Below are positions 21,477-35,989 of a stretch of 64,000 nt of DNA, piece after piece. This stretch comes from Gemmatimonadota bacterium. Its GTDB lineage: Bacteria > Gemmatimonadota > Gemmatimonadetes > Gemmatimonadales > GWC2-71-9. Where the stretch lies: the NCBI GenBank assembly GCA_003222155.1, contig QHUU01000063.1, positions 4,794 to 68,793 of the forward strand, given 5' to 3'. The first letter of the stretch is position 1; the number at the start of each line of letters is the position of its first letter. The translations under genes were made by a program, and so were the position numbers. The notes under the pieces are model-generated. The model ran no database searches and was not told the DNA's origin. It was given only the letters and a program-made list of their open reading frames with translations.

Positions 21477-21479
21477 AGC

Positions 21480-22094
21480 ATGGCCCCCGCCGATATCCGG
21501 ATCACCGCCGAGCCGATCGACACCGGCCGCTGCAAGTTCGTCGTGAGCGAGCCGGTGCACGGCGGCGGCGTGCGGCGGTTCGCGTCGCCCGACGATGCGA
21601 GCGGCTCCCCACTCGCCGAGGGGATCTTCGCGATCCCGGGCGCGGATGTGGCCGAGGTGATCGTCTCCGGAAACCTGGTGACGGTCGTGAAGCGCGGCCC
21701 GGCGCCGTGGCAGACGGTGGGGAAGGCGGTGGGTCAGGTGATTCGCGCCGCCCTCGCCGGGGCCAGCCCGGCCGTGGCACCCAAGCCGGTCGCTCCCGCG
21801 ACGCTCGGCGCGGACGACGACACGCTGTACGAGCGGGTCGCCGACCTGTTCGAGAGCCAGGTGAATCCCATGGTCGCGCGGCACGGCGGTCGGGTCGAGT
21901 TGATCGACGTTCAGGACGCCGTCGTGATGGTCCGCATGGCGGGCGGGTGCCAGGGATGCGGCATGGCGGACGTGACCCTGCGCCAGGGTATCGAGGCGAT
22001 GCTGCAGCAGCACGTCCCCGATGTGAAGGGCGTCGTGGACATCACCGATCACGCCGCCGGCTCGAACCCGTACTTCGCGGCGGCTAAGAAGTAG
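21480..22094 (+). CDS. Nfu/NifU-type Fe-S cluster carrier (Nfu_N + NifU C-terminal domain)
   Basis: C-terminal NPMVARHGGRVELIDVQDAVVMVRMAGGCQGCGMADVTLRQGIE with the CxxC cluster-binding motif. Confidence 0.85.
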   Translation: MAPADIRITAEPIDTGRCKFVVSEPVHGGGVRRFASPDDASGSPLAEGIFAIPGADVAEVIVSGNLVTVVKRGPAPWQTVGKAVGQVIRAALAGASPAVAPKPVAPATLGADDDTLYERVADLFESQVNPMVARHGGRVELIDVQDAVVMVRMAGGCQGCGMADVTLRQGIEAMLQQHVPDVKGVVDITDHAAGSNPYFAAAKK

Positions 22095-22115
22095 GGGCGC
22101 ATCATGCTGCGCCCC
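22094..22115. repeat. Palindromic REP-like element, family B copy 3 (variant carrying an ATG)
   Basis: GGGGCGCATCATGCTGCGCCCC differs from the core GGGGCGCAGCACGCTGCGCCCC at two positions. The ATG at 22104 is the start of the next gene. Confidence 0.6.
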
Positions 22116-23360
22116 GACACACCTAGGCTCCTCCTCCTCCTCCCCACGGCGACCTACCGCACGGCCGCGTTCGTCGAGGCCGCGCGCCGGCTGGGCGTCG
22201 TGCTCACCGTCGCCTCCGAGCGCCCCAGCACGTTCCAGGACGCGAATCCCGGCGGCCTCGTCACACTCGACCTGTCCGAACCGGACCGTGCCGCCGCGCA
22301 GGCACGGGCGTTCGCGCGCGAGCATCCGCTGCAGGGAGTGGTGGGTGTGGACGACGACACAGCGGTCGTGGCCGCCGCGATCGCCACGGCGCTCGGTCTG
22401 CGGGGCAACGACGTCGCCGCGGCCCGCGCGGCGCGCGACAAGCACGAACAGCGGACGTCGCTCGCCACGGCGGGTGTGCCCGTGCCTCATTTCAGGCTGT
22501 TCCCCGTGGACGAAGATCCACGGCGGCTGGCCGCAGGCGTGCCCTACCCGTGCGTGCTCAAGCCGCTGCGCCTGGCCGCCAGTCGCGGCGTGATCCGCGC
22601 GGACACTCAAGAAGATTTCGTGGCGGCGTTCGAGCGGGTGAAGAGAATTCTCGAGCAGGCGGGATGCGCAACCCGCTCGATTCTCGTCGAAGACTTCGTT
22701 CCTGGTCGCGAGTATGCGCTCGAGGGGCTGCTCCTGGCCGGCGAGCTTCGGGTGCTGGCGCTGTTCGACAAGCCCGACCCGCTCGACGGCCCGTACTTCG
22801 AAGAGACGATCTACGTCACACCGTCGCGCCTCCCGGCGGAGGAGCAGCGGGCGGTCGCCGCGTGCGCGGGGCGGGCGGCGGCGGCGCTCGGGCTCCGGGA
22901 AGGACCGGTGCATGCCGAGCTGCGGGTGAACGGCAGCGGCCCCTGGCTGATCGAGCTCGCGGCTCGGCCGATCGGGGGGCGGTGCAGCGGGGCGCTCCGA
23001 TTCGGGACTGGGGGTTCGGGGTTAGGGACTTGGGCGTCACTGGAGGAGATCATCGTGCGCCACGCCTTGGGGATGCAGATCCCGTCGCTCGAGCGCGAAT
23101 CACAGGCTTCCGGCGTGATGATGATCCCGGTGCCGGGCGCGGGCGTGTTACGGGAAGTGCGGGGAGTCGATGAAGCTCGGCGCCTGCCGCTGGTCGAGGA
23201 GGTCGTCATCACCGCGCATCCGGACCAGGAGCTCGTGCCCTGGCCCGAGGGCGCCCGCTATCCCGGATTCATCTTCGCACGCGGTGACACGCCCGAGGCG
23301 GTCGAGGCCGCGCTGCGCGCAGCGCACCGGCGGCTGCAGTTCGTTATCGCGTCGGATTAG
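22104..23360 (+). CDS. ATP-grasp domain ligase (carboxylate-amine ligase type)
   Basis: Pre-ATP-grasp plus ATP-grasp layout (PCVLKPLRLAASRGVIRAD, ILVEDFVPGREYALEGLL, GPVHAELRVNGSGPWLIELAARPIGG). Confidence 0.8.
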   Translation: MLRPDTPRLLLLLPTATYRTAAFVEAARRLGVVLTVASERPSTFQDANPGGLVTLDLSEPDRAAAQARAFAREHPLQGVVGVDDDTAVVAAAIATALGLRGNDVAAARAARDKHEQRTSLATAGVPVPHFRLFPVDEDPRRLAAGVPYPCVLKPLRLAASRGVIRADTQEDFVAAFERVKRILEQAGCATRSILVEDFVPGREYALEGLLLAGELRVLALFDKPDPLDGPYFEETIYVTPSRLPAEEQRAVAACAGRAAAALGLREGPVHAELRVNGSGPWLIELAARPIGGRCSGALRFGTGGSGLGTWASLEEIIVRHALGMQIPSLERESQASGVMMIPVPGAGVLREVRGVDEARRLPLVEEVVITAHPDQELVPWPEGARYPGFIFARGDTPEAVEAALRAAHRRLQFVIASD

Positions 23361-24178
23361 GCTGCTGTCGCCACGCACTCGAGCCAGTTGCGCGGCACGT
23401 GGTCCATGCCCGTCTCATCGATCGTGCGGCGGAGTCCTTCTTTCAACGCGCTCGAGCCTTCCTCGAGCGGGACTCCCGGAAGCGCGCCCTCGATGAACAA
23501 CGAGAAACGCCCGATGTCTTCGAGCGCCTCGGGGGTCATCTCGATGCGTACGAGGTCGACCGCGGGGCGCGTGAAGCCGCCCTGAACGCACAGCTCGCCG
23601 TATTCCTCGGCCGAGAGGAACTGCCGCGCGACCGCGTGGGCCCTGTGCTGGACCTCGAGCCCGCGCTCCCGCAGCACCTGCACTGCGCGCACCACCCAAC
23701 GCCGCCAGAATCCCGCCGTGCCGTCGACGTACGCACCGTTGAAGAAGGTGGTATTGAACGCGAACACGCCGTCCCGCTTCAGCGCCTTGCGGATCTCGCC
23801 GATCACCTGCGCCTTGTCGGGAACGAGGTGGATGGCGTTCAGGAACACGACCGCGTCCGCCGAAGAGACGAGGCGCGATACCCACTCGGCGCTGCCTTCG
23901 ATGAACTCGACGACCTTGGAGTGGATGGCGGCTCGGGCCTTGGACAGCGCTGACGCGGATGGATCGATGCCGATGACCTTGGCGTTGCGCGCGTCATCCA
24001 GCCGCTCCAAGATCAGCTTCGTGACGGCTCCGGGACCGCAGCCCAGATCGACGATCTTGCGCCGACCGGGGCAGATCACCTGCTCGACGATCCAGCGATT
24101 GACCTCGGTGAAAAACGGGTGCCGGGTGAACGCCTCGAAGGAAAAGCGTTCGTCGCCGCCCTCTTCGTGAGCTGCCAT
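23357..24178 (-). CDS. Class I SAM-dependent methyltransferase
   Basis: Motif I KIVDLGCGPGAV, followed by VIGIDPS and ADAVVFLNAIH. Confidence 0.85.
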   Translation of the reverse strand: MAAHEEGGDERFSFEAFTRHPFFTEVNRWIVEQVICPGRRKIVDLGCGPGAVTKLILERLDDARNAKVIGIDPSASALSKARAAIHSKVVEFIEGSAEWVSRLVSSADAVVFLNAIHLVPDKAQVIGEIRKALKRDGVFAFNTTFFNGAYVDGTAGFWRRWVVRAVQVLRERGLEVQHRAHAVARQFLSAEEYGELCVQGGFTRPAVDLVRIEMTPEALEDIGRFSLFIEGALPGVPLEEGSSALKEGLRRTIDETGMDHVPRNWLECVATAA

Positions 24179-24297
24179 GGGCCCCTCCCCGCTCTCAGAC
24201 TTGTGAATCGCGGCCGCACCGCGCCGATCCCCAAGCTTCCAAGGTACACCCTTGGGCCTGGCTTCGCGCCCACGTGCAATCTACTATGGGCATCTAA

Positions 24298-24900
24298 GTG
24301 ACCCCGCCAAGGCGTCTCAGTCAAGAGCAAGAACACTCTTTGGTGCGCCGCCTCAAGGCGCGGGACGAGCACGCGCTCCAGGAATTATACGACGCGCTCG
24401 CACCCTGGGTCCTCGGCCTCGCCTATCGCATCCTGCACGACGAAGACGCGGCCGAGGAAGTAGTCGGTGACGTCTTCGTGAAAGTGTGGCGTGGCGTCCA
24501 CAAGCACGACCCGGACCGCGGTCCGCTGGTGCCGTGGATCCTATCCATCGCGCGTAACCGGGCGCTCGACGAGCTGCGGCGGCGTCAGCGGTGGTGGCGC
24601 AAGGCAGAAAGGTGGGGGCAGGCGCGGGGGGCGACGGGGGCGGGAGAGGAAGTCGCAAACCCGGGGCCGCACGAAGCCGCCGTTCCCGGGTGGCCGCTGC
24701 ACCGCGAGGTGCACGCCGCGCTCGCGACACTGCCGGACGAGCTGCGGCGCGTAGTGATGCTCGCGTATTTCGAAGGGCTGTCGCACAGCCAGATCGCGCG
24801 CCGCCTGCAGCAGCCTCTGGGGACGGTGAAAACGCGGCTGCGGGCGGCTCATCAGAAGTTGACGGACCAGCTGGCACATCTCAAGGATTGGCTGGAATGA
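24298..24900 (+). CDS. ECF-family RNA polymerase sigma factor
   Basis: Region 2 (YDALAPWVLGLAYRILHDEDAAEEVVGDVFVKVW) and region 4 (LPDELRRVVMLAYFEGLSHSQIARRLQQPLGTVKTRLR). GTG start. Confidence 0.9.
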   Translation: MTPPRRLSQEQEHSLVRRLKARDEHALQELYDALAPWVLGLAYRILHDEDAAEEVVGDVFVKVWRGVHKHDPDRGPLVPWILSIARNRALDELRRRQRWWRKAERWGQARGATGAGEEVANPGPHEAAVPGWPLHREVHAALATLPDELRRVVMLAYFEGLSHSQIARRLQQPLGTVKTRLRAAHQKLTDQLAHLKDWLE

Positions 24901-25481
24901 CGGACTGGTTGGGCATGTCGGTGCCTCCGCGGACGCCGCGCCCCGAGCTCAAGGGCCGGGTGCTGGCGCGCGCCCTGGCGCGCGGGCGGCGCTGGCCGTT
25001 GGCGCTGGCGGCGGCGCTCGTGGTCGTGGCGGGAGGAGGGGGGAGTCTGTGGTGGGCGCACGGCAGGATCGACGCGCTCGGTGCGGAGCGGGATCGGCTC
25101 GCGGCGCGGGTCGCGGCCCTCGAGGACACGGTCTCGAGCTTCATCCACGACCCCGCGACGCGACTCATCCAGGTTCCCGTCTCGACCGGGGGCCGTGTCG
25201 GGTCGGTGACGATCTTTGTCGACAGCACGCGGCACCGCTGGCTGGTGCGCTGCGAGGGCCTGGCCCCGAATGCCCGGGACCAGACCTACCAGTTGTGGTT
25301 CGTCACCGACAAGGGAATGCAGCCCGCGGCCCTGATGCTGATGGATCGGGACCAGCCCATGGTGATGGGGTTGCCGCTACCGCAGGCGGGGGAGCGCGTG
25401 ATGGGAGCGGCGATGAGCATCGAGCCGCGGGCCGGCTCGGCGAGTCCGAGCGGGCCCATCGTCTTCCGCGTGGGGCTTTAG
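24897..25481 (+). CDS. Anti-sigma factor, RskA-like C-terminal domain
   Basis: ATGA overlap with the sigma gene and one TM segment (WPLALAAALVVVAGG). QTYQLWFVTDKGMQPAALM resembles the anti-sigma-K (RskA) extracytoplasmic domain. Confidence 0.75.
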   Translation: MTDWLGMSVPPRTPRPELKGRVLARALARGRRWPLALAAALVVVAGGGGSLWWAHGRIDALGAERDRLAARVAALEDTVSSFIHDPATRLIQVPVSTGGRVGSVTIFVDSTRHRWLVRCEGLAPNARDQTYQLWFVTDKGMQPAALMLMDRDQPMVMGLPLPQAGERVMGAAMSIEPRAGSASPSGPIVFRVGL

Positions 25482-25972
25482 GGTCGCTTCCCCGCCAGAT
25501 CGTGGACGGTCTCGAGCTCCACGACCTTGAGGCGCCGCTGCCCCATCGGAAGGGCGGTGGTCACCGACTGCCCCACCTTGGCGCCCAGCAGGGCCTTGCC
25601 GAGGGGGGAAGCCATCGAAACGGGCGTTTCGTGCCCGTCGTCGTCGCCCTCGATGAACTCGCCCAGTGTGAGCGCGTACGTCTCGCGCTGCTTGGTGTCG
25701 ACGTCCTGCACCGTTACGCGGGAGCCGAACCCCACGCGGTCGCGCGGGATGTCGGACTCCTGGACGCTCGAGAGCTTGGAGAGGCGGAGCCGCAGGTGGC
25801 TCAAGCGCGAGGTGACGAACTGCTGGCGCTCGAGCGCCGCCTTGTATTCGGAATTCTCCCGCAGGTCGCCGTGCGCGCGCGCCCGCTCGATCTCCTTCGG
25901 CAGCACGAAGTTGATCTCGTGATTCAGGCGCTCGACCTCGGCCTGGAGGCGGTTCTTCAACTCGTCGATCAT
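25478..25972 (-). CDS. greA: Transcription elongation factor GreA
   Basis: N-terminal coiled coil with AHGDLRENSEYKAALERQ, and a C-terminal FKBP-like domain (VGFGSRVTVQDVDT). Confidence 0.95.
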   Translation of the reverse strand: MIDELKNRLQAEVERLNHEINFVLPKEIERARAHGDLRENSEYKAALERQQFVTSRLSHLRLRLSKLSSVQESDIPRDRVGFGSRVTVQDVDTKQRETYALTLGEFIEGDDDGHETPVSMASPLGKALLGAKVGQSVTTALPMGQRRLKVVELETVHDLAGKRP

Positions 25973-25992
25973 GGGGGAAAAAATAGCCTACT

Positions 25993-26016
25993 CCCCGGGC
26001 TTGCGCCCGGGGTCAG
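25993..26016. repeat. Palindromic REP-like element, family A copy 2
   Basis: CCCCGGGC TTGC GCCCGGGG TCAG in the greA/mrp divergent intergenic region. Confidence 0.7.
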
Positions 26017-26062
26017 TCCTTGCGACTTGGCGTCGTGGCGTCTGGCAACGCATTTTTCCCTC

Positions 26063-26857
26063 ATGCCCCTCAACATCCGCACCTATCACGAGCTGACCGA
26101 GCCGGATCGGTCCGGGCTTCCGGGCCAGATCGCGGCCCAGCGGCGCCGGGTGGCGGCGCGGCTCGCGGGCGTGGGGCGCGTGGTCGCCGTGATGAGCGGC
26201 AAGGGTGGCGTGGGGAAGAGCTTCGCCACCGCGGGGCTCGCCCGGGCTCTGGCGCGCGCAGGTCGGGCCGCGGGGGTGCTCGACGCCGATTTCAACGGAC
26301 CGACCATCCCCGCACTTCTCAGCCTCCCTGTCGCACGTTGCACGTTGCATGAGGATGGCATCGAGCCGGCCGTGAGCGCGGAAGGCGTGCGGTGTTTCTC
26401 CATGGCGCTGCTCCTCGAAGACGGCCGGCCGCTCGGGTTCCGGGGCCCGGAGGCGGATAGCCACGTGTGGCGCGAGACGCTCGAAGCCGCGGCGCTGCGG
26501 GAGTTCCTGGCCGACGTCGCCTGGGGCCCGCTCGATCGGCTGCTCGTCGACCTGCCGCCCGGGATCCAGCGGTTCCAGGAGCTCGCCGGGCTGTTGCCGG
26601 CGCCGCCGGCCGTGCTGACCGTGACCATTCCCACGGCGGAATCGCGCGATGCGGTGCGCCGCGCGATGCAGTTCGCCCGGGAGCGCCGCGCTGAGCTGCT
26701 CGGCGTGGTGGAGAACATGGTGGACGGTCCGTTCGCCGGCGGCGCGGGCGAAGACCTGGCACGCGAGTTCGGGGTGCCGCTGCTCGCACGCATCCCCTGG
26801 CACCCGACCCCGGACGTCTGGGAAGCGGTGGCGCGAAGATTGGAAGGCGGGTCGTGA
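26063..26857 (+). CDS. Mrp/NBP35/ApbC-family P-loop ATPase (Fe-S cluster carrier type)
   Basis: Deviant Walker A VAVMSGKGGVGKSF. Also DADFNGPTIP, LLVDLPPG and VVENM motifs. Confidence 0.85.
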   Translation: MPLNIRTYHELTEPDRSGLPGQIAAQRRRVAARLAGVGRVVAVMSGKGGVGKSFATAGLARALARAGRAAGVLDADFNGPTIPALLSLPVARCTLHEDGIEPAVSAEGVRCFSMALLLEDGRPLGFRGPEADSHVWRETLEAAALREFLADVAWGPLDRLLVDLPPGIQRFQELAGLLPAPPAVLTVTIPTAESRDAVRRAMQFARERRAELLGVVENMVDGPFAGGAGEDLAREFGVPLLARIPWHPTPDVWEAVARRLEGGS

Positions 26858-26860
26858 GAG

Positions 26861-26959
26861 TTCACACGCTGAAGGGTGTACCCGAAACGGCCCTGCCCTT
26901 AAGGGCAGCGCTTCACCGGGCCCAGGCTTCAGCCTGGGAATCAAGGGGGCGCGTGTGAA
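26861..26959 (+). promoter_or_regulatory. Structured intergenic leader (outer stem enclosing two hairpins) that occludes the downstream start codon
   Basis: Outer stem TTCACACGC (26861-26869) pairs with GCGTGTGAA (26951-26959). Inner hairpins CTGCCC-TTAA-GGGCAG (26893-26908) and CCCAGGC-TTCA-GCCTGGG (26921-26938). The GTG start at 26955 sits in the outer stem. Confidence 0.4.
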
Positions 26960-27404
26960 GTTCCTCTGCGTCGACTGCGACCGGCAGATGCTGTTCGAGG
27001 AGCGGCAGCTCCCCGGGGACGGCACGCTCGCGGCGGCGTTCCGGTGCCCCCAATGCGGTCGCGCCGTCGGGCTGTTGACCAATCCGATGGAGACGCAGCT
27101 CGTGGCGTCGCTGGGCGTAAAGATCGGCGGGACGACGATCGACCCGCAGCCGCTCGAGACGGTGCGGGGGATGGTCACGACGGGGCGAGACGAAGCCTTC
27201 GCGGAGGCGGCGGGGGACGGGGGACGAGGGACGGGTGTCGTCTGGTCGGTCGACGCTCAGGAGCGCCTGGCCCGGGTCCCCAACTTCGTGCGCGGGATGG
27301 TGAAGAAGATCTACGCCGACTATGCCAAGGATCGCTGCATTGCGGAGATCACCCCGGCCGTGATGGACACCGCGCGGAGCGAGCTCGGGCTCGAGGGCAT
27401 GTGA
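26955..27404 (+). CDS. Zinc-ribbon + PCP_red (BchB/ChlB C-terminal-like) domain protein
   Basis: RBS AAGGGGG. CVDC...CPQC zinc ribbon. C-terminal VVWSVDAQERLARVPNFVRGMVKKIYADYAKDRCIAEITPAVMD matches the W-x-x-x-A-x-x-x-L-x-x-[IV]-P-x-F-[VA]-R pattern of PCP_red. Confidence 0.7.
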   Translation: MKFLCVDCDRQMLFEERQLPGDGTLAAAFRCPQCGRAVGLLTNPMETQLVASLGVKIGGTTIDPQPLETVRGMVTTGRDEAFAEAAGDGGRGTGVVWSVDAQERLARVPNFVRGMVKKIYADYAKDRCIAEITPAVMDTARSELGLEGM

Positions 27405-27676
27405 GCCTGGACGAGCGCACAGTCCACGGGCTGCGCATCGTGATCGACCGCGAGCAGTGCGTCGGGTTCGGCGACTGTGCGACGGCAGCCCCCGAGGGTT
27501 TCAAATTGGACGCCGACACCATCGCCACCTTCCTCGAGCCGGAGCGGGTGGAGCGCGAGCGCCTGCTGCGGGCGTGTGACGCCTGTCCGGTAGATGCCAT
27601 AACCGTTTGGGACTCAGAGGGTAGGCAGCTGGTGCCAGGACAGTCCACGGCTAGACGCACAGACGCACCGCGGTGA
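27401..27676 (+). CDS. Small single-cluster ferredoxin
   Basis: GTG overlapping the upstream stop (ATGTGA). CVGFGDC ... CDACPVDAI cysteine pattern. Confidence 0.75.
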   Translation: MSLDERTVHGLRIVIDREQCVGFGDCATAAPEGFKLDADTIATFLEPERVERERLLRACDACPVDAITVWDSEGRQLVPGQSTARRTDAPR

Positions 27677-27746
27677 ATAGGGAGTAGTCGGCAGGAGCAT
27701 CCGCCCACTCGGCCCTGTTCACCACTGTGCGTCCGTTGCGTCTAGC
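27650..27746. repeat. Long-range inverted repeat spanning the ferredoxin stop and intergenic spacer (terminator/insulator candidate)
   Basis: GCTAGACGCACAGACGCAC (27650-27668) versus GTGCGTCCGTTGCGTCTAGC (27727-27746). The arms are complementary apart from one extra base, separated by about 58 nt. Confidence 0.5.
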
Positions 27747-27772
27747 TGTTGCATCTTCTGTTCGCTGCTTAC

Positions 27773-27801
27773 TTGACAGCCTGTCTCGTCGTTCACATAC
27801 T
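27773..27801 (+). promoter_or_regulatory. Sigma-70-like promoter candidate for the USP/radical-SAM/bd-like operon
   Basis: TTGACA (27773-27778), 17-nt spacer, CATACT (27796-27801), about 20 nt upstream of the GTG at 27821. Confidence 0.4.
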
Positions 27802-27820
27802 CGCCGCGCCCAAAGGGGAG

Positions 27821-29794
27821 GTGCCGGTGTACCGCGAGATCTTCGTCCCGGTCGACAACTCGAGTCCTTCGGACTGGGCAGTCGACCGGGCCATCGAGTT
27901 GTGCCGCCAATCCGACGGCCGCATCACCGGAAACCACGTTTATGCCGCCCGCCTCCACGACGTCCGCTTTCGCCAGCTCGAAACCGGGCTCCCGGCCCGG
28001 TTCCAGACTCCCGACGAGATCAAGAAACAGCGCAAGATCCACGACAAGCTGATCGAAAAAGGCCTGCAACTGATCGCGGACAGCTTTCTCGACCAGCTGG
28101 GGAAGCGCTGCGAGGCGGCCGGCGTGCGTCTGACTCGCCAGCTGTTGGAAGGCATCAACTACGAGGAGATCGTCAACGAGGTGAACCGCGGCGCCGGCCG
28201 GCTGCCGGGGCTGATCGGCTTCGACCCCGACCGCGCGGCGGGCTACGACGGGGGCGACAAGACGCGCTCGGACGTGAAGGTGGGTGAGAATGGCCGGCTC
28301 GTGGCCGAAGACGAGGACGCGGCCGCGCGGCTTGCCGGCTCGTCGGGCCGCCAGTACGACCTGCTCGCGATCGGCGCGCACGGTCTGGGCCGTCAGCCCT
28401 ACTCGCAGCTCGGGGGCGTGGTGTCGCGCGTGCTGCGCGGCATCGAGAAGGACGTGCTGCTGGTGCGCGACGAGCGGCCGTTCGCGGGCGGGCGGTTCCT
28501 GGTGTGCGTGGACGGGTCGTCCTACGGCTATCGGGCGATGCGGCTGGCGCTCGAGCTGGCCCAGGCGTTCGGCGGGTCGCTGTTCGTGTGCAGCGCGTTC
28601 GACGTGGAGTACCACCACGTTGTGTTTCACAACATCAAGGATGTTCTCTCCTATCAAGCGTCCAAAGTCTTCAAGTTCGAGGAGCAGGAGGAGCTGCACA
28701 ACAACATCATCGACAAGGGCCTCCTGAAGCTGTGCCAGGCGAACCTGAAGCGCGCCGAGGTGATGGCGCAGGAGTTCCCCGGCGTCTCTCTCACGACGCA
28801 GATCCTGGTGGGCAAGCCGTTCCAGGTGATCATGCAGTGGGCCGAGGAGATCAAGCCGTCGCTGCTGGTGCTGGCGCGGCACGGCGCCCATCGGATCGAA
28901 GGCACCGAGCTCGGTAGCCAGGCGGAGAACCTCGTGCGGCTTGCGCCTTGCAACGTGCTGCTCGCGGGGACGGGCGGGGTGAGGCCCGAGGACATCCCCT
29001 GGATCGAGGAAGACGGGGTGGCGGGGCTGCCCTGGGCGCCGGAGGCCGAGGTGCGGATTCTGCGGGTGCCGCCGTTCGCGCAGGGGATCGCGCGCCGGGC
29101 CGTGGAGGAATACGTGCTGGAGCAGACGCACGGAGAGCCCGCGACGGTCACCAACAAGTGGCTCGACGAGGCGATCCGGAAGCTTCTGCCCACCCACATG
29201 CAGCTCATCATGGGCATCGGGACGGCCGAGGAGATCGCGCTCGCGGAAGTGAAGGCGCAGGAGCAAATGAAGGCGACGAAGGTGCATGGCTGCGACGCCG
29301 ACCCCCAGCCCCTGACCCCTGAAGTTGAAGTGAAATGCCCAGTCACGGGCGCTGTGAGCCGCCGTCCGCGCACCGCGGCCGACCCGATCGTCTGGACCGA
29401 GGAGGCCTGGCAGCGGCTGCAGCTGGTGCCCCTCATCGCCCGGCCGCTGGCGCGCAACACGGTCGAGCGGTTCGCGCGCGGGCACGACATCTGGCGCGTG
29501 AGCACCGGCGTGATGGACGAAAACAAACAGGCGATGATCGCGGCCGACGAGTTCGACGTGGACACGATGATGGTGATGTTCCAGGAGCTGCGCGCCAAGC
29601 AGATCCGCGCCGAGGCCGAAGGGCGCGATGGATTGAGTCCCGAGATGCGGGCGTTCATCGAGGAGGCGAAAGCGCAGGGGATCACGCGTTGCCCCATTCG
29701 GGACATCGAGGAAAAGATGGGGAAGTGCCCGGTCGACTTCGGGGGCCTGACGCCCGAGGAGGCGAAGCAGGCGGTGGAGAAGCTGTTGCAGTGA
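27821..29794 (+). CDS. Tandem universal-stress-protein (USP) domains fused to two PCP_red domains
   Basis: USP motifs (YREIFVPVDNS...; LLAIGAHGLGRQPYSQLGGVVSRVLRGIEKDVLLV; FLVCVDGS...LVLARHGAHRIEGTELGSQAENLVRLAPCNVLL). Then LPWAPEAEVRILRVPPFAQGIARRAVEEY and IVWTEEAWQRLQLVPLIARPLARNTVERFAR. Start at 27821 or 27827 (GTG); the ORF-track start at 27749 is unlikely. Confidence 0.8.
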   Translation: MPVYREIFVPVDNSSPSDWAVDRAIELCRQSDGRITGNHVYAARLHDVRFRQLETGLPARFQTPDEIKKQRKIHDKLIEKGLQLIADSFLDQLGKRCEAAGVRLTRQLLEGINYEEIVNEVNRGAGRLPGLIGFDPDRAAGYDGGDKTRSDVKVGENGRLVAEDEDAAARLAGSSGRQYDLLAIGAHGLGRQPYSQLGGVVSRVLRGIEKDVLLVRDERPFAGGRFLVCVDGSSYGYRAMRLALELAQAFGGSLFVCSAFDVEYHHVVFHNIKDVLSYQASKVFKFEEQEELHNNIIDKGLLKLCQANLKRAEVMAQEFPGVSLTTQILVGKPFQVIMQWAEEIKPSLLVLARHGAHRIEGTELGSQAENLVRLAPCNVLLAGTGGVRPEDIPWIEEDGVAGLPWAPEAEVRILRVPPFAQGIARRAVEEYVLEQTHGEPATVTNKWLDEAIRKLLPTHMQLIMGIGTAEEIALAEVKAQEQMKATKVHGCDADPQPLTPEVEVKCPVTGAVSRRPRTAADPIVWTEEAWQRLQLVPLIARPLARNTVERFARGHDIWRVSTGVMDENKQAMIAADEFDVDTMMVMFQELRAKQIRAEAEGRDGLSPEMRAFIEEAKAQGITRCPIRDIEEKMGKCPVDFGGLTPEEAKQAVEKLLQ

Positions 29795-31065
29795 ACCTCG
29801 TCCCGCACGTGATCGCCTGGAATCTGACCAGGCGCTGCAACCTCGAGTGCGCGCATTGCTACATCTCGGCCGGACCGAGCGAGAGCGCCGCCGCCGAGCT
29901 CGACACGGCGGCGTGCGTCGACATCGTGGACCAGCTGCTCGCGGTGAATCCCGCGCCACTCCTCATCCTGTCGGGAGGTGAGCCGTTGTTGCGGCCGGAC
30001 CTGGGCGAGATCGCCCACTACGCGTGCGCCAACGGCGCGACAGTGGTGGTCGGGACCAACGGCACGCTGCTCACCGAAGAGCGCATCGCGGCGCTCACGG
30101 ACGCCGGCGTGCGGGGCGTCGCGGTCAGCGTCGACTCGCTGCGTCCGTCGTATCACGACAACTTCCGCCACGGCAGAGGCGCTCTCGCCGATGTGCAGGC
30201 GGCGCTCGCGCGGCTGCGCGCGGCACGGCTCGACTTCATCGTGCAGACGACGGTGACCAAGGGCAACCGCGCCGAGCTGGAGCGCTTGGTGGCGTGGTCG
30301 GCAGACGAAGGGGCCGTCTCGTTCAACTGCTACTTTCTGGTGCCGACCGGCCGTGGCGCGGCGCTCTCGGACCTGACGCCGGCGGACTACGAGGCGGTGC
30401 TCGCCGACCTCGCTCGCTGGGAGGGCGCCTATCGGGGCCGCATGCTGGTGCGGGCGAAGTGCGCCCCGCATTTCATGCGCCTCGTGCATCAGACCGACCC
30501 CGAGTCCCCGGTCCTGAACTACGAGACCCGCTGTCCCTGCGGCACGCAGTACTGCCGCATCACCCCGGACGGCAAGGTCACGCCGTGCCCGTACCTGCCC
30601 GAGGTGGCCGGGGATCTGCGGTCGCAGCGCTTCGCCGACGTGTGGCGGTCGTCGCCCCTGTTCCGGCGCCTGCGGGAGGGCCCGCTGCAGGGGAAGTGCG
30701 GGGCGTGCGAGTACCGCGCGGTGTGCGGCGGGTGCCGGGCGCGCGGGTTCGCGCTCGAGGGGGACGTGCTCGCCGCCGATCCGTCGTGCCTTTATCAACC
30801 GACGGGCGACACGGCCGTCATCGAGCCGGCCCGCGCCGTGCGCTACGGCGGCGACTTTCAACCGGCGCTCGCGTGGACGCCCGCGGCGCGCGAGCGCGTG
30901 GCGCGCATCCCCTCGTTCGTGCGGGGGGTCGTGATGGAGCGGGTGGAGGCGTGGGCGCGCCGCCAGGGACGGCGCGAAGTCACACCCGAGCTGCTCGCGG
31001 AAGTGCGCCGCGCGCTGCCGATCGACTTTTCCAAGAAGCGCCCGTTCTTCGTGGCTGACAGCTGA
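29791..31065 (+). CDS. Radical SAM/SPASM enzyme (AhbC/AhbD/NirJ-like) with C-terminal PCP_red domain
   Basis: GTGA overlap with the upstream gene. CNLECAHC radical-SAM cluster motif and LILSGGEPLLRPD. SPASM cysteines CPCGTQYC ... CGACEYRAVCGGCRARG. Tail LAWTPAARERVARIPSFVRGVVMERVEAWARRQG. Confidence 0.9.
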   Translation: MNLVPHVIAWNLTRRCNLECAHCYISAGPSESAAAELDTAACVDIVDQLLAVNPAPLLILSGGEPLLRPDLGEIAHYACANGATVVVGTNGTLLTEERIAALTDAGVRGVAVSVDSLRPSYHDNFRHGRGALADVQAALARLRAARLDFIVQTTVTKGNRAELERLVAWSADEGAVSFNCYFLVPTGRGAALSDLTPADYEAVLADLARWEGAYRGRMLVRAKCAPHFMRLVHQTDPESPVLNYETRCPCGTQYCRITPDGKVTPCPYLPEVAGDLRSQRFADVWRSSPLFRRLREGPLQGKCGACEYRAVCGGCRARGFALEGDVLAADPSCLYQPTGDTAVIEPARAVRYGGDFQPALAWTPAARERVARIPSFVRGVVMERVEAWARRQGRREVTPELLAEVRRALPIDFSKKRPFFVADS

Positions 31066-32780
31066 TGACCGACGGCGCCCTGCTGCTGCAAGCCGCCGCC
31101 GACTCGACTCGCGCCTACGGCGAGTTCCCTGTGATCGGCGCGCGGGCGTTCATATGGATCACGGCCGAAGTGCACCTGATGTTCGCCGCCTTCGTGCTCG
31201 GCGTGCCGATGTTCGCCGTGGTGACGGAGGCGATCGGCATCTTCGGCGGCGACGAGCGCTACGACCGGCTGAGCAAGGAGTTCACGCGCCTCCTGCTCGT
31301 GGCGTACAGCGCCACGGCGATCTGGGGCGCGATGCTGGTGTTCGGCCTGTCGACGCTGTATCCCCGGTTCTGGGCGTACCTGACCGCGATTTTCGCGCCG
31401 TCGATGTGGGCCTACGCGGCACTGTTCCTCGTCGAGTCGTTCACGCTGTACCTCTATTACTACGGCTGGGACCGCTGGAAGAAAGGCCGGGCCAAGCTGG
31501 GCCACTGGACGCTCGGCATCCTGCTCAACCTGTGGGGCACGATCGTGATGTTCATCGCGAACTCGTGGCTCACGTACATGATGTCGCCGCCCCGGGATAT
31601 CACGCCCACCACCGACCCGACCACGATCAAGCTGTGGCACGCGATCGCCAACGCGACGTGGATGCCGATCAACGTGCACCGGGTGATCGCCAACGTCGTC
31701 TTCGGCGGCGCGATCGTGGGGGCGTATGCGAGCTATCGCTTCCTCGCGGCACAGAGCGACGAGGAGCGGGCGCACTACGACTGGATGGGCTACGTCGGGA
31801 ACTTCATCGCGATGTCGGCCCTGATCGTGCTGCCGTTCGCCGGCTACTGGCTGGGGCGCGAGATCTATCAGTACGACCAGTCGATGGGCATCACGATGAT
31901 GGGCGGGTTCATGAGCTGGTTGTGGGTGATCCAGGCGTTCCTGATCGCGGTGCTGTTCCTGACGGGGAACTACTACCTGTGGATCGGGATGGGCCGCATT
32001 CCCGGCGCGGAGCGGTTCCGGCCCTACACCAAGTACCTGCTGATCGTGCTGGTGCTCGGCGCCATCGTGTGGGGCACGCCTCACACGATGATCGCCGACT
32101 CGAAGGAGCTGGCGGCGATGGGCGGATCGCACCACCCGTTCCTGGGCGCCCTGGGCGTGATGAGCGCCAAGAACACTGCCGTGAACCTGATGATCCTGAC
32201 CACGTTCCTCTCGTTCCTGCTGTACCGGCGCGCCAACACCCGTCCGGTGGTCCCGTGGGCGCGCGGCGGGACCATCATCCAGGGGGCGATGTTCGCCCTG
32301 GCGGCCGGCGTCGTGCTGTTTTACGGCATCCGTGGCTATTTCGTCGAGGCCATCGTCCGCATCGGCTTCAGCGTGTATCAGGTGCTCGCCGTCCTGAGCT
32401 GCATCGTGTTCGTGACGGTGATCGACGTGTTGATGGCTCGCGGCGCGCAGTCGCTCGGCACGATCCAGTGGGGCAAGATGCCGCCGCGGTCGCAATACGC
32501 GCTGTTCATCCTCGCGGTGACGTTCACGTGGCTCATGGGGCTGATGGGGTTCGCCCGCTCCGGCATCCGCCAGTACTGGCACGTGTGGCAGGTGATGCAG
32601 GACACGAGCAAGTACGCCGCCACCCCGGCGCTCGGCTACGCGTCCAAGATGATCAGCCTGTGCGTGCTGATCTTTCTCACGCTCGTCGCGTTCGTGTTCT
32701 GGCTCGGCGGGCTGGCGGAGAAGTCCACGTTCGTCGCCTCCGGCGAGCGCCAGGGAGGGGGCCGCCATGTGGGCCACTAA
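31065..32780 (+). CDS. Cytochrome bd subunit-I-like (CydA-like) membrane protein, no Q-loop, no CydB partner
   Basis: 1-nt overlap (TGATG) with the radical SAM gene. CydA-like motifs VHLMFAAFVLGVP, LFLVESFTLYLYYYGWDR, KLGHWTLG, IANSWLTYMMSP, INVHRVIANV. Polytopic throughout. Confidence 0.8.
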   Translation: MTDGALLLQAAADSTRAYGEFPVIGARAFIWITAEVHLMFAAFVLGVPMFAVVTEAIGIFGGDERYDRLSKEFTRLLLVAYSATAIWGAMLVFGLSTLYPRFWAYLTAIFAPSMWAYAALFLVESFTLYLYYYGWDRWKKGRAKLGHWTLGILLNLWGTIVMFIANSWLTYMMSPPRDITPTTDPTTIKLWHAIANATWMPINVHRVIANVVFGGAIVGAYASYRFLAAQSDEERAHYDWMGYVGNFIAMSALIVLPFAGYWLGREIYQYDQSMGITMMGGFMSWLWVIQAFLIAVLFLTGNYYLWIGMGRIPGAERFRPYTKYLLIVLVLGAIVWGTPHTMIADSKELAAMGGSHHPFLGALGVMSAKNTAVNLMILTTFLSFLLYRRANTRPVVPWARGGTIIQGAMFALAAGVVLFYGIRGYFVEAIVRIGFSVYQVLAVLSCIVFVTVIDVLMARGAQSLGTIQWGKMPPRSQYALFILAVTFTWLMGLMGFARSGIRQYWHVWQVMQDTSKYAATPALGYASKMISLCVLIFLTLVAFVFWLGGLAEKSTFVASGERQGGGRHVGH

Positions 32781-33576
32781 CCTGAAGGTCGTCGGGATCG
32801 TGCTGGGGACCCTGGCACTCTATACGCTCATCGCCAACAAGATTCCGCAGGTGCAGTCCGAGGTGCCGCAAACCCTCACCCTGGGGGCGAACGTCACGCC
32901 CGAACAGCTGGTGGCGGCGGGAGAGAAGGTGTTCAACGGCATCGGCGGCTGCCCCACCTGCCACGGGCTCGGCACGCGCGCGCCCAATCTCCTCACGGAC
33001 GAGAAGGGCACCGGACCGATCGGCGCCCGCTGCGGCAAGCGGGAAGCCGGCAAGAGCTGCAAGCAGTATCTGTACGAGTCGCTCGACAATCCGACCGCGT
33101 TCGTCGTGACGGGCTATCAGCCGATCATGCCGGTCATGACCAGGCAGCTCTCGCCAGAGCAGATCTGGTCGGTGATCGCCTTCTTGGAGTCGCAGGGCGG
33201 CACCGTGGACGTAACAGGGGACGACGTAGCCAAAGCGAAGCAACTGACCCCGGGCGCAAGCCCGGCGAATTCGGGAGGTAGTCCTGGTGGTGGGGCCTTT
33301 GCCGCCGGCAGCACGGACCCCAAAGCCATCATCCAGGCGGCGGGGTGCCTCGCGTGCCACAAGCTCGACGGCCAGGGACAGGTGATCGCGCCCGATCTCA
33401 CGCATGTGGGCGCGCGCCGGGACGCGGAATCGATCCGCAAGAAGATCCTGGATCCGGCGTCGTCGATCGCGAAGGGCTACGAGAAGCTCGCCGGGATCAT
33501 GCCCAAGACGTTCGGCACCATGATGAGCGCCGCGCAGCTCGAAGCGCTGGTGCAGTATCTGGCGGGGCACAAGTGA
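32767..33576 (+). CDS. Membrane-anchored dihaem c-type cytochrome
   Basis: N-terminal TM segment and two CxxCH motifs (CPTCH, CLACH), each followed by a Met-containing distal region. 14-nt overlap with the upstream gene. Confidence 0.85.
   Translation: MWATNLKVVGIVLGTLALYTLIANKIPQVQSEVPQTLTLGANVTPEQLVAAGEKVFNGIGGCPTCHGLGTRAPNLLTDEKGTGPIGARCGKREAGKSCKQYLYESLDNPTAFVVTGYQPIMPVMTRQLSPEQIWSVIAFLESQGGTVDVTGDDVAKAKQLTPGASPANSGGSPGGGAFAAGSTDPKAIIQAAGCLACHKLDGQGQVIAPDLTHVGARRDAESIRKKILDPASSIAKGYEKLAGIMPKTFGTMMSAAQLEALVQYLAGHK
33244..33265. repeat. REP-like element family A, partial copy 4, embedded in the cytochrome c inter-domain linker
   Basis: CTGACCCCGGGCGCAAGCCCGG is identical over 22 nt to 45522-45543. 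It is translated as ..LTPGASPAN.. Confidence 0.6.
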
Positions 33577-34391
33577 CCGCACCCGCGCTGCGGCGCTCCG
33601 CCACGCACCCGTTCTGGCAGGCGGTGGGAATTCTCGTTATCGCCTACATCGTAGTCGTGTGGGTGGTGCCGCTGCTCCCGGGCAGCGCCATCGTCCCGAA
33701 GAGCGTGGTGCTCCAATACATGGTCACGGTGCTGGTCGGCGTGCTCATCTACGTGAGCGACAACGAGGAACGTTGGGCCCGCTTCAAAGAGCCGATCGAG
33801 GCCGTGCTGGCCGAGCCGCGGCTCCGGGTGGTGCGGGCCGTGCTGCTCGTCGTGGTGACGGCGCTGGTCGGGCTCGTGGCGTACGGGCAGGTGGCCACCA
33901 CCGTCGCCGCCCCACCCAATCTCCGCTCGATCCACCCCGCCCCGCCCGCGGAAATCACGTTCCGGGGCAGGTCGATCACGCTGACAGGGCTCGAGAACCC
34001 GCTGCGCGCGCACCCGGAGTCGCTCGCCCTCTACCTGGCCGAGGGGAAGGGCGTCTACTACCGCAACTGCCTGCCCTGTCACGGGGACCACCTCGACGGT
34101 CAGGGGCACTTCGCATCGGGGTTCAATCCACTGCCGGCGAACTTCCAGGACAACGGCACCATCGCCCAGCTCACGGAGAGCTTCGTGTTCTGGCGCGTGG
34201 CCAAGGGCGGGCCGGGTCTGCCGCGTGAGGGCACGCCGTGGAACTCGGCGATGCCGAAGTGGGAGGACTTTCTCACGGAGCGCGAGATCTGGTCGGTGAT
34301 CCTGTTCCTGTACGATCAAACCGGGTGGACTCCACGAACCTGGGAGAAAACGGGGACGGGGGACGGGGGACGGGGGACGGGGCATGATTGA
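33573..34391 (+). CDS. Polytopic membrane-anchored monohaem c-type cytochrome
   Basis: GTGA overlap with the upstream gene. Three or four TM segments, then CLPCHGDHLDG and a ...NSAMPKWEDFLTEREIWSVILFLY cytochrome c fold. Confidence 0.8.
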   Translation: MTAPALRRSATHPFWQAVGILVIAYIVVVWVVPLLPGSAIVPKSVVLQYMVTVLVGVLIYVSDNEERWARFKEPIEAVLAEPRLRVVRAVLLVVVTALVGLVAYGQVATTVAAPPNLRSIHPAPPAEITFRGRSITLTGLENPLRAHPESLALYLAEGKGVYYRNCLPCHGDHLDGQGHFASGFNPLPANFQDNGTIAQLTESFVFWRVAKGGPGLPREGTPWNSAMPKWEDFLTEREIWSVILFLYDQTGWTPRTWEKTGTGDGGRGTGHD

Positions 34392-34452
34392 CGGGCTTCT
34401 GGTCCTCGCGCTCCTCGCACCACTCGTCCCCCGTCCCCCTTCCCTCGTCCCG
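34351..34452. repeat. (GGGGACG)x4 heptamer array plus inverted (CGTCCCC-like)x4 array forming a long hairpin over a gene junction
   Basis: Left arm 34352-34379 is four exact GGGGACG units. Right arm 34425-34452 is CGTCCCC CGTCCCC CTTCCCT CGTCCCG. The 42-nt loop holds the ATG at 34384 and the TGA at 34389-34391. Confidence 0.8.
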
Positions 34453-35961
34453 CTGCAGGACACGACGAAAGGGAAGGCAGTTTATGTGAAGTGGTGCGCC
34501 GGTTGCCATGGCGATGGCGGCGCGGGCGACGGCCCCTCCGCCGCGCACATGCTTCCCCGGCCCCGCAACTTCACCGGCGCGATCTATAAGATCCGCAGTA
34601 CGGCCTCGGGTCAGCTGCCGACCGACGCCGACCTGATGCGGGCGATCGACGAAGGGCTGCCCGGGAGCGCGATGCCGGCGTGGAAGGGGCGCCTGTCGGA
34701 CGGCGAGCGGCGCGACGTGGCCGGGTACATCAAGACGTTCTCCGCGTTCTTCGCGGACACGAGCCAGCACGCGGCGGCGCTCAAGTTCTCGGGCGAGCCG
34801 GGCGGTGGCACCGGCGCGGCGGCGCTCAAGACCGGGCGCCAGTTCTACGATTCCATCGGGTGCCGCAAGTGTCACGGCGACCAGGGGCGGGGAGACGGGC
34901 CGTCCGCGCCCACGCTCAAGGACGACGCCGGGTTTCCCATCTTCGCGGCGGACCTGCATCAGAGCTGGCGGTTTCGCGGGGGGGGCAGTGCGGCGGACAT
35001 CTACCACCGGCTGCGCACCGGGCTCGACGGGACACCGATGCCCTCGTTCTCGGACCTGATCGACCAGAAGTTCCTGACCGACGAGCAGCTGTGGCGGCTG
35101 GCCCAGTACGTACGCTCGCTCTCGCCGCCCGACCCGCCCGAGGTGCGCGACGTCATCCATGCGCCGCAGATCGCCGGCCCCGCGCCGGTCTCGCCCGACG
35201 ACTCGGCGTGGGCGCGCGCCGACCGCTACTGGTTCCCGCTCGTCGGGCAGGTGGTGCGCAAGGCGCGCTGGTTCGCGCCCGCGGTGACGGGTGTGTGGGT
35301 GCAGGCGCTGCACGACGGCCACACCCTCGCGCTGCGGTTGAGCTGGGACGATCGCACCCAGAGCCCTGACAGCGCGTGGCTCGGGTTCGAGCAGCGCGTG
35401 CTCGAGACCGTCGCCGGCGACGACTCGGGCCCCCCCAAGGCGGAGCCGTGGCCCGACCAGCTGGCGGTGCAGTTCCCCCGCCGTCTCCCGGAGGGTTCGG
35501 GGGGCATGGAGCGCCCCTACTTCTTGATGGGAAGCGAGACCGACCCGGTGTACCAGTGGCGCTGGACCAGCCGGCCGCGCAAGAGCGTCGCGGGCCTGGC
35601 CCGGGGCATCGAGCGGTTCGACACGCTCCCCGGGGCGTTGGCGGGGCAGGCGAGCTTCGATCACGGCGAGTGGCGGCTGGTGTTCACGCGCGCCCTTGCC
35701 ACGCCGGATACCGCCAACGAAGTTCAGCTTGAGGCCGGCCGGGCGATTCCGGTGGCCTTCTTCGGCTGGGACGGCTCCAGCGGGGAACACGGCTCGCGCA
35801 TGGCGGTGAGCACCTGGTACTTCCTGGCGCTCGATCGGCCCACGCCGCCGGGCGTGTTCATTTCTCCGGTGCTGGCCATGCTCGTGACGCTGGGACTGGG
35901 GCTCGTGGTCGTCCGGCGGGCCCGGCGGCGCGGTACGGCGCGTGCAGGGAGACAGCGATAG
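34384..35961 (+). CDS. Dihaem cytochrome c fused to an EB_dh/DOMON-like (ethylbenzene-dehydrogenase gamma-type) haem-binding domain, C-terminal TM anchor
   Basis: CAGCH and CRKCH motifs. Then WVQALHDGHTLALRLSWDD...DQLAVQFP...YFLMG...YQWRW...GEWRLVFTRAL...VAFFGWDGSSGEHGSRMAVSTW, as in EB_dh-family domains. Terminal TM segment ISPVLAMLVTLGLGLVVV. Confidence 0.8.
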   Translation: MIDGLLVLALLAPLVPRPPSLVPLQDTTKGKAVYVKWCAGCHGDGGAGDGPSAAHMLPRPRNFTGAIYKIRSTASGQLPTDADLMRAIDEGLPGSAMPAWKGRLSDGERRDVAGYIKTFSAFFADTSQHAAALKFSGEPGGGTGAAALKTGRQFYDSIGCRKCHGDQGRGDGPSAPTLKDDAGFPIFAADLHQSWRFRGGGSAADIYHRLRTGLDGTPMPSFSDLIDQKFLTDEQLWRLAQYVRSLSPPDPPEVRDVIHAPQIAGPAPVSPDDSAWARADRYWFPLVGQVVRKARWFAPAVTGVWVQALHDGHTLALRLSWDDRTQSPDSAWLGFEQRVLETVAGDDSGPPKAEPWPDQLAVQFPRRLPEGSGGMERPYFLMGSETDPVYQWRWTSRPRKSVAGLARGIERFDTLPGALAGQASFDHGEWRLVFTRALATPDTANEVQLEAGRAIPVAFFGWDGSSGEHGSRMAVSTWYFLALDRPTPPGVFISPVLAMLVTLGLGLVVVRRARRRGTARAGRQR

Positions 35962-35989
35962 CATGCGGGCCTTTCATCGAGGAGGCAGG

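Follow-up and report, generated by a model that had tools for sequence, protein, structure and literature searches.

PCP_red domains of a conserved radical SAM gene module adjoining a predicted OR-N2-type oxidase operon in Gemmatimonadota

Four copies of the small PCP_red domain (PF08369) are encoded close together in a 64,000-nucleotide stretch of a Gemmatimonadota genome (GenBank assembly GCA_003222155.1, contig QHUU01000063.1, positions 4,794 to 68,793), which is referred to as the window in the following. Our comparison with loci of other phyla suggests that these segments mark, as a shared tag, a conserved module of four accessory proteins, namely a USP-PCP_red protein carrying universal stress protein (USP) domains, an Mrp-like ATPase, a Zn-ribbon-PCP_red protein and a radical SAM-PCP_red enzyme. 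The module is apparently a so far undescribed radical SAM cofactor-maturation cassette of the AhbD/NirJ type; no published description of it was found in the literature on PCP_red or on bd-like oxidases with radical SAM/NirJ proteins.

Four PCP_red domains and their host genes

The original prediction, made from the DNA letters alone, had placed four PCP_red-like segments in this region, and all four were recovered when each segment was scanned alone against Pfam, where the gathering score of PF08369 is 32.5 bits (the tryptophan of the core lies at 27243, 29033, 29393 and 30874 on the forward strand for copies 1 to 4):

27237-27392, forward strand: PCP_red copy 1 (PF08369 47.4 bits, E = 1.9e-12, full profile 1-45)
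29027-29191, forward strand: PCP_red copy 2 (PF08369 30.5 bits, E = 3.8e-7, profile 1-33, insertion of 3 amino acids)
29387-29542, forward strand: PCP_red copy 3 (PF08369 40.5 bits, E = 2.9e-10)
30868-31023, forward strand: PCP_red copy 4 (PF08369 44.3 bits, E = 1.8e-11)

The match of copy 2 is limited to part of the profile and stays just under the gathering score because of its 3-residue insertion. As whole proteins all hosts pass PF08369, i.e., the Zn-ribbon protein with 43.9 bits, the USP protein (copies 2 and 3) with 54.7 bits and the radical SAM protein with 39 bits, and a six-frame scan of the window revealed no fifth copy, the next best match having an E-value of about 3. Pairwise local identity among the copies amounts to 26-41%, and their alignment scores lie 6-18 standard deviations above composition-preserving shuffles, with none of 2000 shuffles equalling the observed score; the mutual similarity is therefore real and low complexity is excluded as its source. 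A likeness arising only by chance or from Arg/Ala-rich composition, for which the G+C content of about 69% and the score of copy 2 just under the Pfam cut-off could be quoted, is practically negligible and is ruled out by the E-values of 1e-7 to 1e-12, the shuffling results and orthologues with group-specific signatures across phyla. The strict pattern proposed for all four segments, which opens with W-[STA]-x-[DEP]-A, describes copies 1 to 3 and has to be widened for copy 4 (W-T-P-A-A), where the fourth position must also allow alanine.

In line with the suspected relationship to the C-terminus of BchB/ChlB, a profile built from the four copies matches residues 459-509 of ChlB (2xdq, E = 4.8e-9) as well as the stand-alone PCP_red nuclear magnetic resonance structures 2l09 (Asr4154; E = 6e-8) and 2kru (E = 1e-7). 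Identities of the copies to ChlB/BchB (26-42%) are comparable to those among the copies themselves, copy 4 being the most ChlB-like (42%) and bearing a net charge of +5. Since the copies are as close to ChlB as to one another, and since each of them has orthologues in other phyla with a conserved signature specific to its group, they are ancient paralogues and not the result of a local expansion. What is shared with BchB/ChlB and the two solved structures is a three-helix domain of about 45 residues with the core W-x3-A-x2-R-l-x2-v-P-x-f-x-R ... E-x2-A-R, and over 201 PCP_red domains from related loci this core reads W-t-x2-A-x2-R-l-x-r-v-P-x-f-x-R ... e-x2-A-r-e-x-g ... i-t. Unlike BchB/ChlB, the window proteins contain no BchB body (TIGR01278 gives 28.6 and 31.5 bits over the last 50-67 positions only, at a cut-off of 490), and the domain sits on USP, Zn-ribbon and radical SAM proteins and is encoded 4-8 times per gene cluster instead of once. 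AlphaFold2 models of the Zn-ribbon-PCP_red and the radical SAM-PCP_red protein, based on multiple sequence alignments of only 77-94% identity, predict three helices in copy 1 (residues 99-143, predicted local distance difference test (pLDDT) 67-83) and in copy 4 (pLDDT 60-82), the models as a whole being poor.

The host genes are part of a set of five genes on the forward strand (26063-31065), which includes one promoter-like site:

26063-26857, forward strand: Mrp/NBP35-type P-loop ATPase of the Fe-S cluster carrier family, 264 amino acids (PF10609 ParA/NUBPL 146.6 bits)
26955-27404, forward strand: Zn-ribbon-PCP_red protein, 149 amino acids (PF08369; weak Zn_ribbon_4 and DUF7836 matches)
27401-27676, forward strand: single-cluster 4Fe-4S ferredoxin, 91 amino acids (PF13370 Fer4_13 41.8 bits)
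27773-27801, forward strand: promoter-like site TTGACA-17-CATACT, a consensus match only, 20 nucleotides upstream of the USP gene
27821-29794, forward strand: tandem-USP protein with two PCP_red domains, 657 amino acids (PF00582 115.8 bits in three stretches; PF08369 54.7 bits in two stretches)
29791-31065, forward strand: radical SAM/SPASM enzyme of the AhbD/NirJ2 clade with C-terminal PCP_red, 424 amino acids (PF04055 91.6, PF13186 38.8 and PF08369 39 bits)

The three host proteins had been taken to be adjacent; they are indeed neighbours in one operon, with the small ferredoxin gene inserted between the first and the second. The gene of the Mrp-like ATPase is the first of the module and divergent from greA, and its product stays under the curated equivalog cut-offs of MrpORP (142.8 bits, cut-off 450) and ApbC (95.5 bits, cut-off 348). 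The Zn-ribbon protein, translated from a GTG start with AAGGGGG ahead of it, consists of a CxxC...CPxC motif (Cys 5, 8, 31 and 34, invariant in 22 homologues), a variable linker and PCP_red, and its homologues are named "PCP reductase family protein" or hypothetical in public records. The stop of its gene overlaps the start of the ferredoxin gene (ATGTGA). The USP protein passes the gathering score of PF00582, the three stretches representing tandem domains, and features two pairs of cysteines, C491/C506 in the linker between the PCP_red domains and C624/C636 in a lineage-specific tail; soil Gemmatimonadota hold many homologues at about 90% identity.

The USP gene overlaps the radical SAM gene (GTGA), the stop of which overlaps the start of a cydA-like gene by 1 nucleotide, and the module is thereby translationally coupled to an oxidase operon of the OR-N2 type. 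The promoter-like site lies within the 145-nucleotide gap before the USP gene and is the sole sigma-70-like match in 25400-37000 (11.6 kb; 0.6 expected). Because this only match precedes the USP-PCP_red gene, the USP, radical SAM and oxidase genes may form a transcription unit of their own. Between the module genes no intrinsic terminator stands out in a sequence scan.

The radical SAM enzyme and the module in other phyla

A radical SAM enzyme of tetrapyrrole type had been suspected in the operon, and this assignment is supported by its best NCBIfam matches, AhbD (TIGR04545, 290 bits) and NirJ2 (TIGR04055, 289 bits), which run end to end over the 339-position model, as well as by haem proteins and haem biosynthesis genes encoded nearby. 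With these two families the enzyme shares the CX3CX2C radical SAM motif (Cys 16/20/23) and an auxiliary motif, C303-x2-C306-x5-C312-x2-C315-x17-C333, whose spacing is exactly that of the AhbD auxiliary-cluster motif CX2CX5CX2CX17C (PMC10114771). It differs from them by its score (290 bits at a cut-off of 500), by being equidistant from NirJ2 and by its position in a separate clade. For calibration, true AhbD proteins of Methanocellaceae and Syntrophus reach 554 and 560 bits on TIGR04545 and AhbD-like genes beside hemE/hemH in Nitrospirota 441 bits; other PCP_red-bearing relatives of the enzyme score 318-329 bits on the AhbD and NirJ2 models. The closest solved structures are PqqE and SkfB, and a search of the PDB returned no AhbD structure, PqqE being among the best matches.

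Among 50%-identity representatives (1.84 billion searched), 971 matched the enzyme at E < 1e-30, and about 55 of the best 150 of these 971 carry PCP_red after the core, some of them with two, three or four domains in tandem; the length of the linker between SPASM domain and PCP_red varies across the family. In a neighbour-joining tree of 86 cores, every PCP_red-bearing enzyme falls within one clade. This single fusion clade, together with the scores under the AhbD/NirJ2 cut-offs, argues that the enzyme represents a distinct subfamily of the AhbD/NirJ2 group, separate from true AhbD and defined by the fusion to PCP_red. Close homologues are labelled "radical SAM protein" or, at the Joint Genome Institute, "AdoMet-dependent heme synthase", and the latter label may be an over-annotation.

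The lists of close homologues were dominated by soil Gemmatimonadota (77-94% identity), and diversity was therefore drawn from the 50%-identity representatives and from a genome scan with one genome per GTDB species, which returned 80 loci that were annotated with the window proteins and the PCP_red profile. The fusion enzyme is present in 60 of these loci, covering at least 11 phyla in all: Gemmatimonadota, Acidobacteriota, Chloroflexota, Poribacteria, Planctomycetota including anammox genera, Methylomirabilota, Nitrospinota, Nitrospirota, Alpha-, Gamma- and Zetaproteobacteria, Rhodothermales/Bacteroidota and Binatia. Where fusion loci offered at least 8 kb on both sides (31 loci), they contained a USP-PCP_red gene in 23, an Mrp gene in 22, a Zn-ribbon-PCP_red gene in 21, a cydA-like gene with cytochromes in 13 and COX genes in 16 cases. 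Plain AhbD-like loci (archaea, Syntrophus, Dehalococcoidia) showed no module partner, cydA-like or COX gene in 18 of 20 cases, and photosynthesis genes were absent from the annotated neighbours in loci from other phyla. Each of the 11 phyla with the fusion also appears in the list of 27 phyla that have OR-N oxidases.

Outside Gemmatimonadota, the usual order is a cydA-like gene, two cytochrome c genes, a cytochrome c/EbdC gene, a USP protein with the layout USP-USP-PCP-rubredoxin-like-PCP-PCP, Mrp, Zn-ribbon-PCP and radical SAM-PCP, and the Mrp gene stands directly ahead of the Zn-ribbon-PCP_red gene in most related loci. The USP protein of these loci thus contains PCP_red three times, alongside a rubredoxin-like domain of the CxxC...CxxC type (PF21349; e.g., L014:2987-4924, L019, L025, L038, L045, L052, L059, and L061), and the ferredoxin is confined to the Gemmatimonadota versions of the module. 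Gemmatimonadota, by comparison, have lost this rubredoxin-like domain together with the middle PCP_red and have acquired the ferredoxin. In Planctomycetota, anammox bacteria and Zetaproteobacteria, no separate partners are encoded nearby and the enzyme itself carries two to four PCP_red domains in tandem. PCP_red hence shifts between partner proteins and enzyme among lineages, with varying linker lengths, and is present on every non-ATPase component of the conserved four-protein set; the concentration of one small domain in a single operon, first pointed out for the window, recurs across phyla. Four as a fixed number of PCP_red domains was rejected, as cassettes carry between one and eight.

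Haem-related genes adjoin the enzyme in further lineages. In Alphaproteobacteria, a gene of the HemY family of protoporphyrinogen/coproporphyrinogen oxidases directly follows it (TIGR00562 254 bits, cut-off 98; L035:11287-13354, also L044, L050, L051, L053, L056, and L057), and in L035, the sole locus checked, a gene for a SCO1/SenC copper chaperone comes next. AhbD/HemQ-type enzymes have been reported to be largely absent from proteobacteria using the classical pathway (PMC5095920). In one "Deltaproteobacteria" locus (L028), the cassette is preceded by a HemY-like gene and followed by a UbiA-family (CtaB-like) gene.

Several local variations were also observed. A GNAT-type acetyltransferase-like gene lies between the USP-PCP_red and Mrp genes in L059:7535-8407 (Acidobacteriota) and L028:6228-7103 ("Deltaproteobacteria"), and Poribacteria have a second tandem-USP gene, a HEAT-repeat gene and a CopD-like gene instead. 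A metagenome-assembled genome of Binatia (L049) contains the full cassette and the oxidase genes twice, in mirror image around position 11,350, which is probably an assembly artefact. In Thermodesulfovibrionales and Nitrospirota, plain AhbD-like genes without PCP_red stand beside hemE and hemH (L072:2041-5861 and L078:10007-16475, the latter with an additional hemY-like gene), an arrangement that looks like a coproporphyrin-dependent pathway in which a radical SAM decarboxylase would replace ChdC.

The oxidase operon and its surroundings

The region from the module onwards is a same-strand cluster of about 19 kb for respiration and the coproporphyrin pathway of haem synthesis:

31065-32780, forward strand: cytochrome bd subunit-I-like membrane protein of predicted OR-N2 type, 571 amino acids (PF01654 71.1 bits)
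32767-33576, forward strand: dihaem cytochrome c (PF00034 and PF13442, two stretches each)
33573-34391, forward strand: membrane-anchored cytochrome c (PF13442 and PF00034)
34384-35961, forward strand: dihaem cytochrome c fused to an EbdC-like (EB_dh) haem b domain, with C-terminal anchor (PF13442 80.5, PF09459 61.3 and TIGR03477 84 bits)
35942-45513, forward strand: CarboxypepD_reg-like protein, COX2, COX1, COX3, UbiA-family protein, ChdC-Rieske fusion, HemE, ferrochelatase and HemY-like oxidase (Pfam; NCBIfam for ChdC and HemY)

The neighbouring oxidase matches the description of the OR-N2 type (Murali et al., bioRxiv 10.1101/2021.01.16.426971) in its operon content, i.e., a CydA-like protein without quinol site, several cytochromes c and an EbdC homologue, and in its conserved residues, and is therefore tentatively placed there. 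The cydA-like protein is 45-77% identical across phyla with invariant H37, E124, Y131, Y133, H147 and H205, the spacing of which fits that of H99, E190, Y197/199, H213 and H269 in the OR-N2 reference, shifted uniformly by 4 residues. A crude hydropathy scan gave 13 segments, some of them overlapping (the OR-N2 description has 14 transmembrane helices). The N-terminal four-helix region aligns to solved canonical CydA and is the only region to match; an OR-N structure was not found in the PDB search. The OR-N2 paper differs from the window in that its main text contains no radical SAM, USP or PCP_red genes and its supplements no "radical SAM", and the accessory module is new relative to it. When metagenome loci were collected with the oxidase as anchor (80 loci, 72-97% identity), a radical SAM-PCP_red gene lay directly upstream in 50 of the 50 with enough upstream sequence; as these loci are all close relatives, the rule that the oxidase implies the module is shown only within that lineage.

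ChdC, HemE, HemH and HemY are encoded 10 kb downstream of the module on the same strand, and the UbiA-family protein reads, from its position, as haem O synthase-like. The ChdC-like protein (window 41427-42524, forward strand; Chlor_dismutase 192 bits, HemQ_actino 123 bits at a cut-off of 235) bears a Rieske [2Fe-2S] domain at its C-terminus, an unusual fusion for ChdC which could bear on oxidant or electron supply, and its gene is directly followed by those for HemE, ferrochelatase and the HemY-like oxidase. The CarboxypepD_reg-like beta-sandwich protein ahead of the COX genes (35942-36727, forward strand) has no NCBIfam match; such a gene also precedes COX genes in loci of Acidobacteriota, Rhodothermales, Bacteroidota and Methylomirabilota, and its product may be an uncharacterised accessory subunit of haem-copper oxidases. 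Upstream of the module (19113-25972) lie seemingly unrelated genes, namely one for MetE (forward strand, Pfam) and, as read from translations, genes for a methyltransferase and GreA (both on the reverse strand), for a NifU-like and an ATP-grasp protein, and for an ECF sigma factor accompanied by a putative anti-sigma factor.

Possible roles of the module

The interpretation that we favour, and to which we give about an even chance, is that of a complex for haem finishing and delivery in which PCP_red domains would serve as tags for assembly or hand-over; a scaffold of this kind, as envisaged in the original prediction, fits the anatomy of the module. The radical SAM enzyme would act on the propionates of an iron tetrapyrrole by radical chemistry of the AhbD type, converting coproheme to haem b or catalysing a variation on this reaction, and its product would supply the adjoining haem-rich respiratory complex. 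Mrp could load the three [4Fe-4S] clusters of the enzyme, the ferredoxin and the Cys4 modules (Zn-ribbon or rubredoxin-like) could move electrons in or out, and the USP pair might sense a nucleotide. PCP_red domains on flexible linkers would act as docking or assembly tags, holding the partners, and possibly the tetrapyrrole, around the enzyme. The tetrapyrrole substrate, the oxidase as target and the binding partner of PCP_red are what we infer here. HemW offers a functional analogy, being a radical SAM protein by which haem b is delivered to a respiratory enzyme of the membrane; it differs in belonging to the CgdH/HemN-like family, not to SPASM/AhbD, and in having no PCP_red.

For PCP_red itself, no assigned function was found in the literature, even in dark-operative protochlorophyllide oxidoreductase (DPOR). 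In DPOR, BchB helix 398-420 is reported to cover or contact protochlorophyllide, acting in trans, and PCP_red lies downstream of this helix (residues 474-520 of the 525-residue BchB). The domain shows no sequence signature for the binding of a tetrapyrrole. DPOR and the module have in common that the domain accompanies an enzyme that acts on a tetrapyrrole or resembles enzymes doing so. Provided that the module is haem-related, there would be an even prospect that PCP_red is a flexibly tethered docking or assembly tag which gathers the partners around the enzyme, and the domains on the enzyme have a mean charge of +3.1 (n = 61), those on the two kinds of partners of -1.2 and -1.4. A second possibility under the same proviso, with a distinctly smaller chance, is a direct tetrapyrrole carrier comparable to the NifX-type domains of NifB. 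In the NifB-NifX fusion, NifX and NafY, a radical SAM enzyme also has a small C-terminal domain whose paralogues occur separately in the gene cluster, and in A. vinelandii such domains pass the cofactor between maturation proteins; fold and cofactor are unrelated to those of PCP_red, and the carrier function, established for NifX-type domains, can be carried over to PCP_red by analogy only. Some other role of PCP_red in a haem-related module seems unlikely.

Several observations weigh against the proposed haem-finishing complex. The link to the oxidase is not universal, as multi-PCP_red enzymes of anammox bacteria and Planctomycetota adjoin a histidine kinase and a response regulator, the fusion gene of Nitrospinota is solitary, and no cydA-like gene was detectable within 10 kb of the module of Poribacteria. 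The genome also encodes ChdC, and the module is therefore not needed simply for haem b. The enzyme misses the equivalog cut-off of 500 bits on both TIGR04545 and TIGR04055, and its reaction may consequently differ from those of AhbD and NirJ2. Radical SAM enzymes are typically oxygen-sensitive, and one would not readily expect such an enzyme to be paired with an oxygen reductase. In addition, no His, Cys, Met or Tyr that could serve as axial ligand is conserved across the 201 PCP_red domains, and nothing on domain packing is readable from the AlphaFold2 models (mean pLDDT 57).

An unlikely alternative, albeit the likeliest of those considered, is a plain oxygen-independent coproheme decarboxylase, isofunctional with AhbD, which would generally supply haem b via the coproporphyrin-dependent pathway; the USP/PCP_red proteins would then only regulate, and the proximity of the oxidase would reflect a general supercluster for respiration and haem. 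AhbD as top match with its auxiliary-cluster motif, the hemE, hemH, hemY and chdC genes in the cluster of the window, the plain AhbD-like genes inside hemE/hemH/hemY operons of Nitrospirota (L072, L078) and the HemY-family neighbour in Alphaproteobacteria are consistent with this, and the solitary genes of Nitrospinota indicate that the enzyme can stand alone. However, fusion enzymes reach 290-330 bits as opposed to 441-560 bits for the genes in haem operons and true AhbD, are equidistant from NirJ2 and form a separate clade. The coupling to the oxidase gene, with the same arrangement in all 50 oxidase-anchored loci (72-97% identity), also argues against this alternative, and a housekeeping enzyme would not be expected to call for a USP protein, an Mrp of its own and three to seven additional PCP_red domains. 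Unlike AhbD, the fusion enzyme moreover occurs in phyla of aerobic or microaerobic lifestyle in which ChdC is present as well, and it adjoins the oxidase, not ahbABC.

Rather improbable is a role of PCP_red in docking a partner of the Fe-S redox or ATPase kind, be it the Mrp-like dimer, the ferredoxin or one of the Cys4 modules, parallel to BchB-BchL and without any tetrapyrrole or PCP-PCP role. Such a dock would fit the Mrp gene directly before the Zn-ribbon-PCP_red gene in most loci, the twofold pairing of PCP_red with Cys4 modules (Zn-ribbon-PCP, and rubredoxin-like-PCP in the USP protein) and the lack of a conserved tetrapyrrole ligand noted above. Furthermore, DPOR and the module both combine a tetrapyrrole-type enzyme with a P-loop Fe-S ATPase, and Mrp and NifH/BchL share SIMIBI-class ancestry. 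On the other hand, the alphaproteobacterial, planctomycete, anammox and zetaproteobacterial versions have three to seven PCP_red domains and no Mrp or Zn-ribbon gene within 10 kb, and the PCP_red of BchB is not described as docking surface for BchL in the DPOR literature found.

Modification of a protein, such as the cross-linking or side-chain alteration of a cytochrome or of the CydA-like subunit, with PCP_red as a protein-recognition element comparable to those by which peptide maturases recognise ribosomally synthesised and post-translationally modified peptides, is very doubtful. Many of the radical SAM/SPASM families among the NCBIfam matches are indeed peptide maturases, PqqE and SkfB are the closest solved structures and the gene of the enzyme is coupled to that of a membrane protein. 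Yet peptide-maturase models reach at most 147 bits (the best being mycofactocin) against 290 for AhbD/NirJ2, there is no space for a precursor-peptide gene because the gene of the enzyme overlaps both neighbours, and haem is suggested by the genes of the HemY family and the UbiA family (CtaB-like) that adjoin the enzyme in other phyla.

A more far-reaching variant of the haem-finishing complex, which we hold to be quite unlikely, would be a dedicated cofactor biosynthesis and insertion system for OR-N2 oxidases, in which the AhbD-like enzyme would make a non-canonical haem from an iron tetrapyrrole to take the place of the d/b595-type haem, e.g., a haem that is partly decarboxylated or has other side-chain changes, with PCP_red as a family of tetrapyrrole carrier domains both here and in DPOR. 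If true, this would open a first genetic access to the specialisation of haems in the bd superfamily and would give PCP_red its first function.

The fusion to PCP_red defines a distinct AhbD/NirJ2-like clade, and the module offers a first functional context outside photosynthesis for PCP_red, a domain with already solved structures (2kru and 2l09). OR-N oxidases, an uncharacterised family, occur widely, among others in nitrifiers, anammox bacteria, Gemmatimonadota, Acidobacteriota and Poribacteria. In this context, the module described here represents a concrete and testable candidate for their haem supply.

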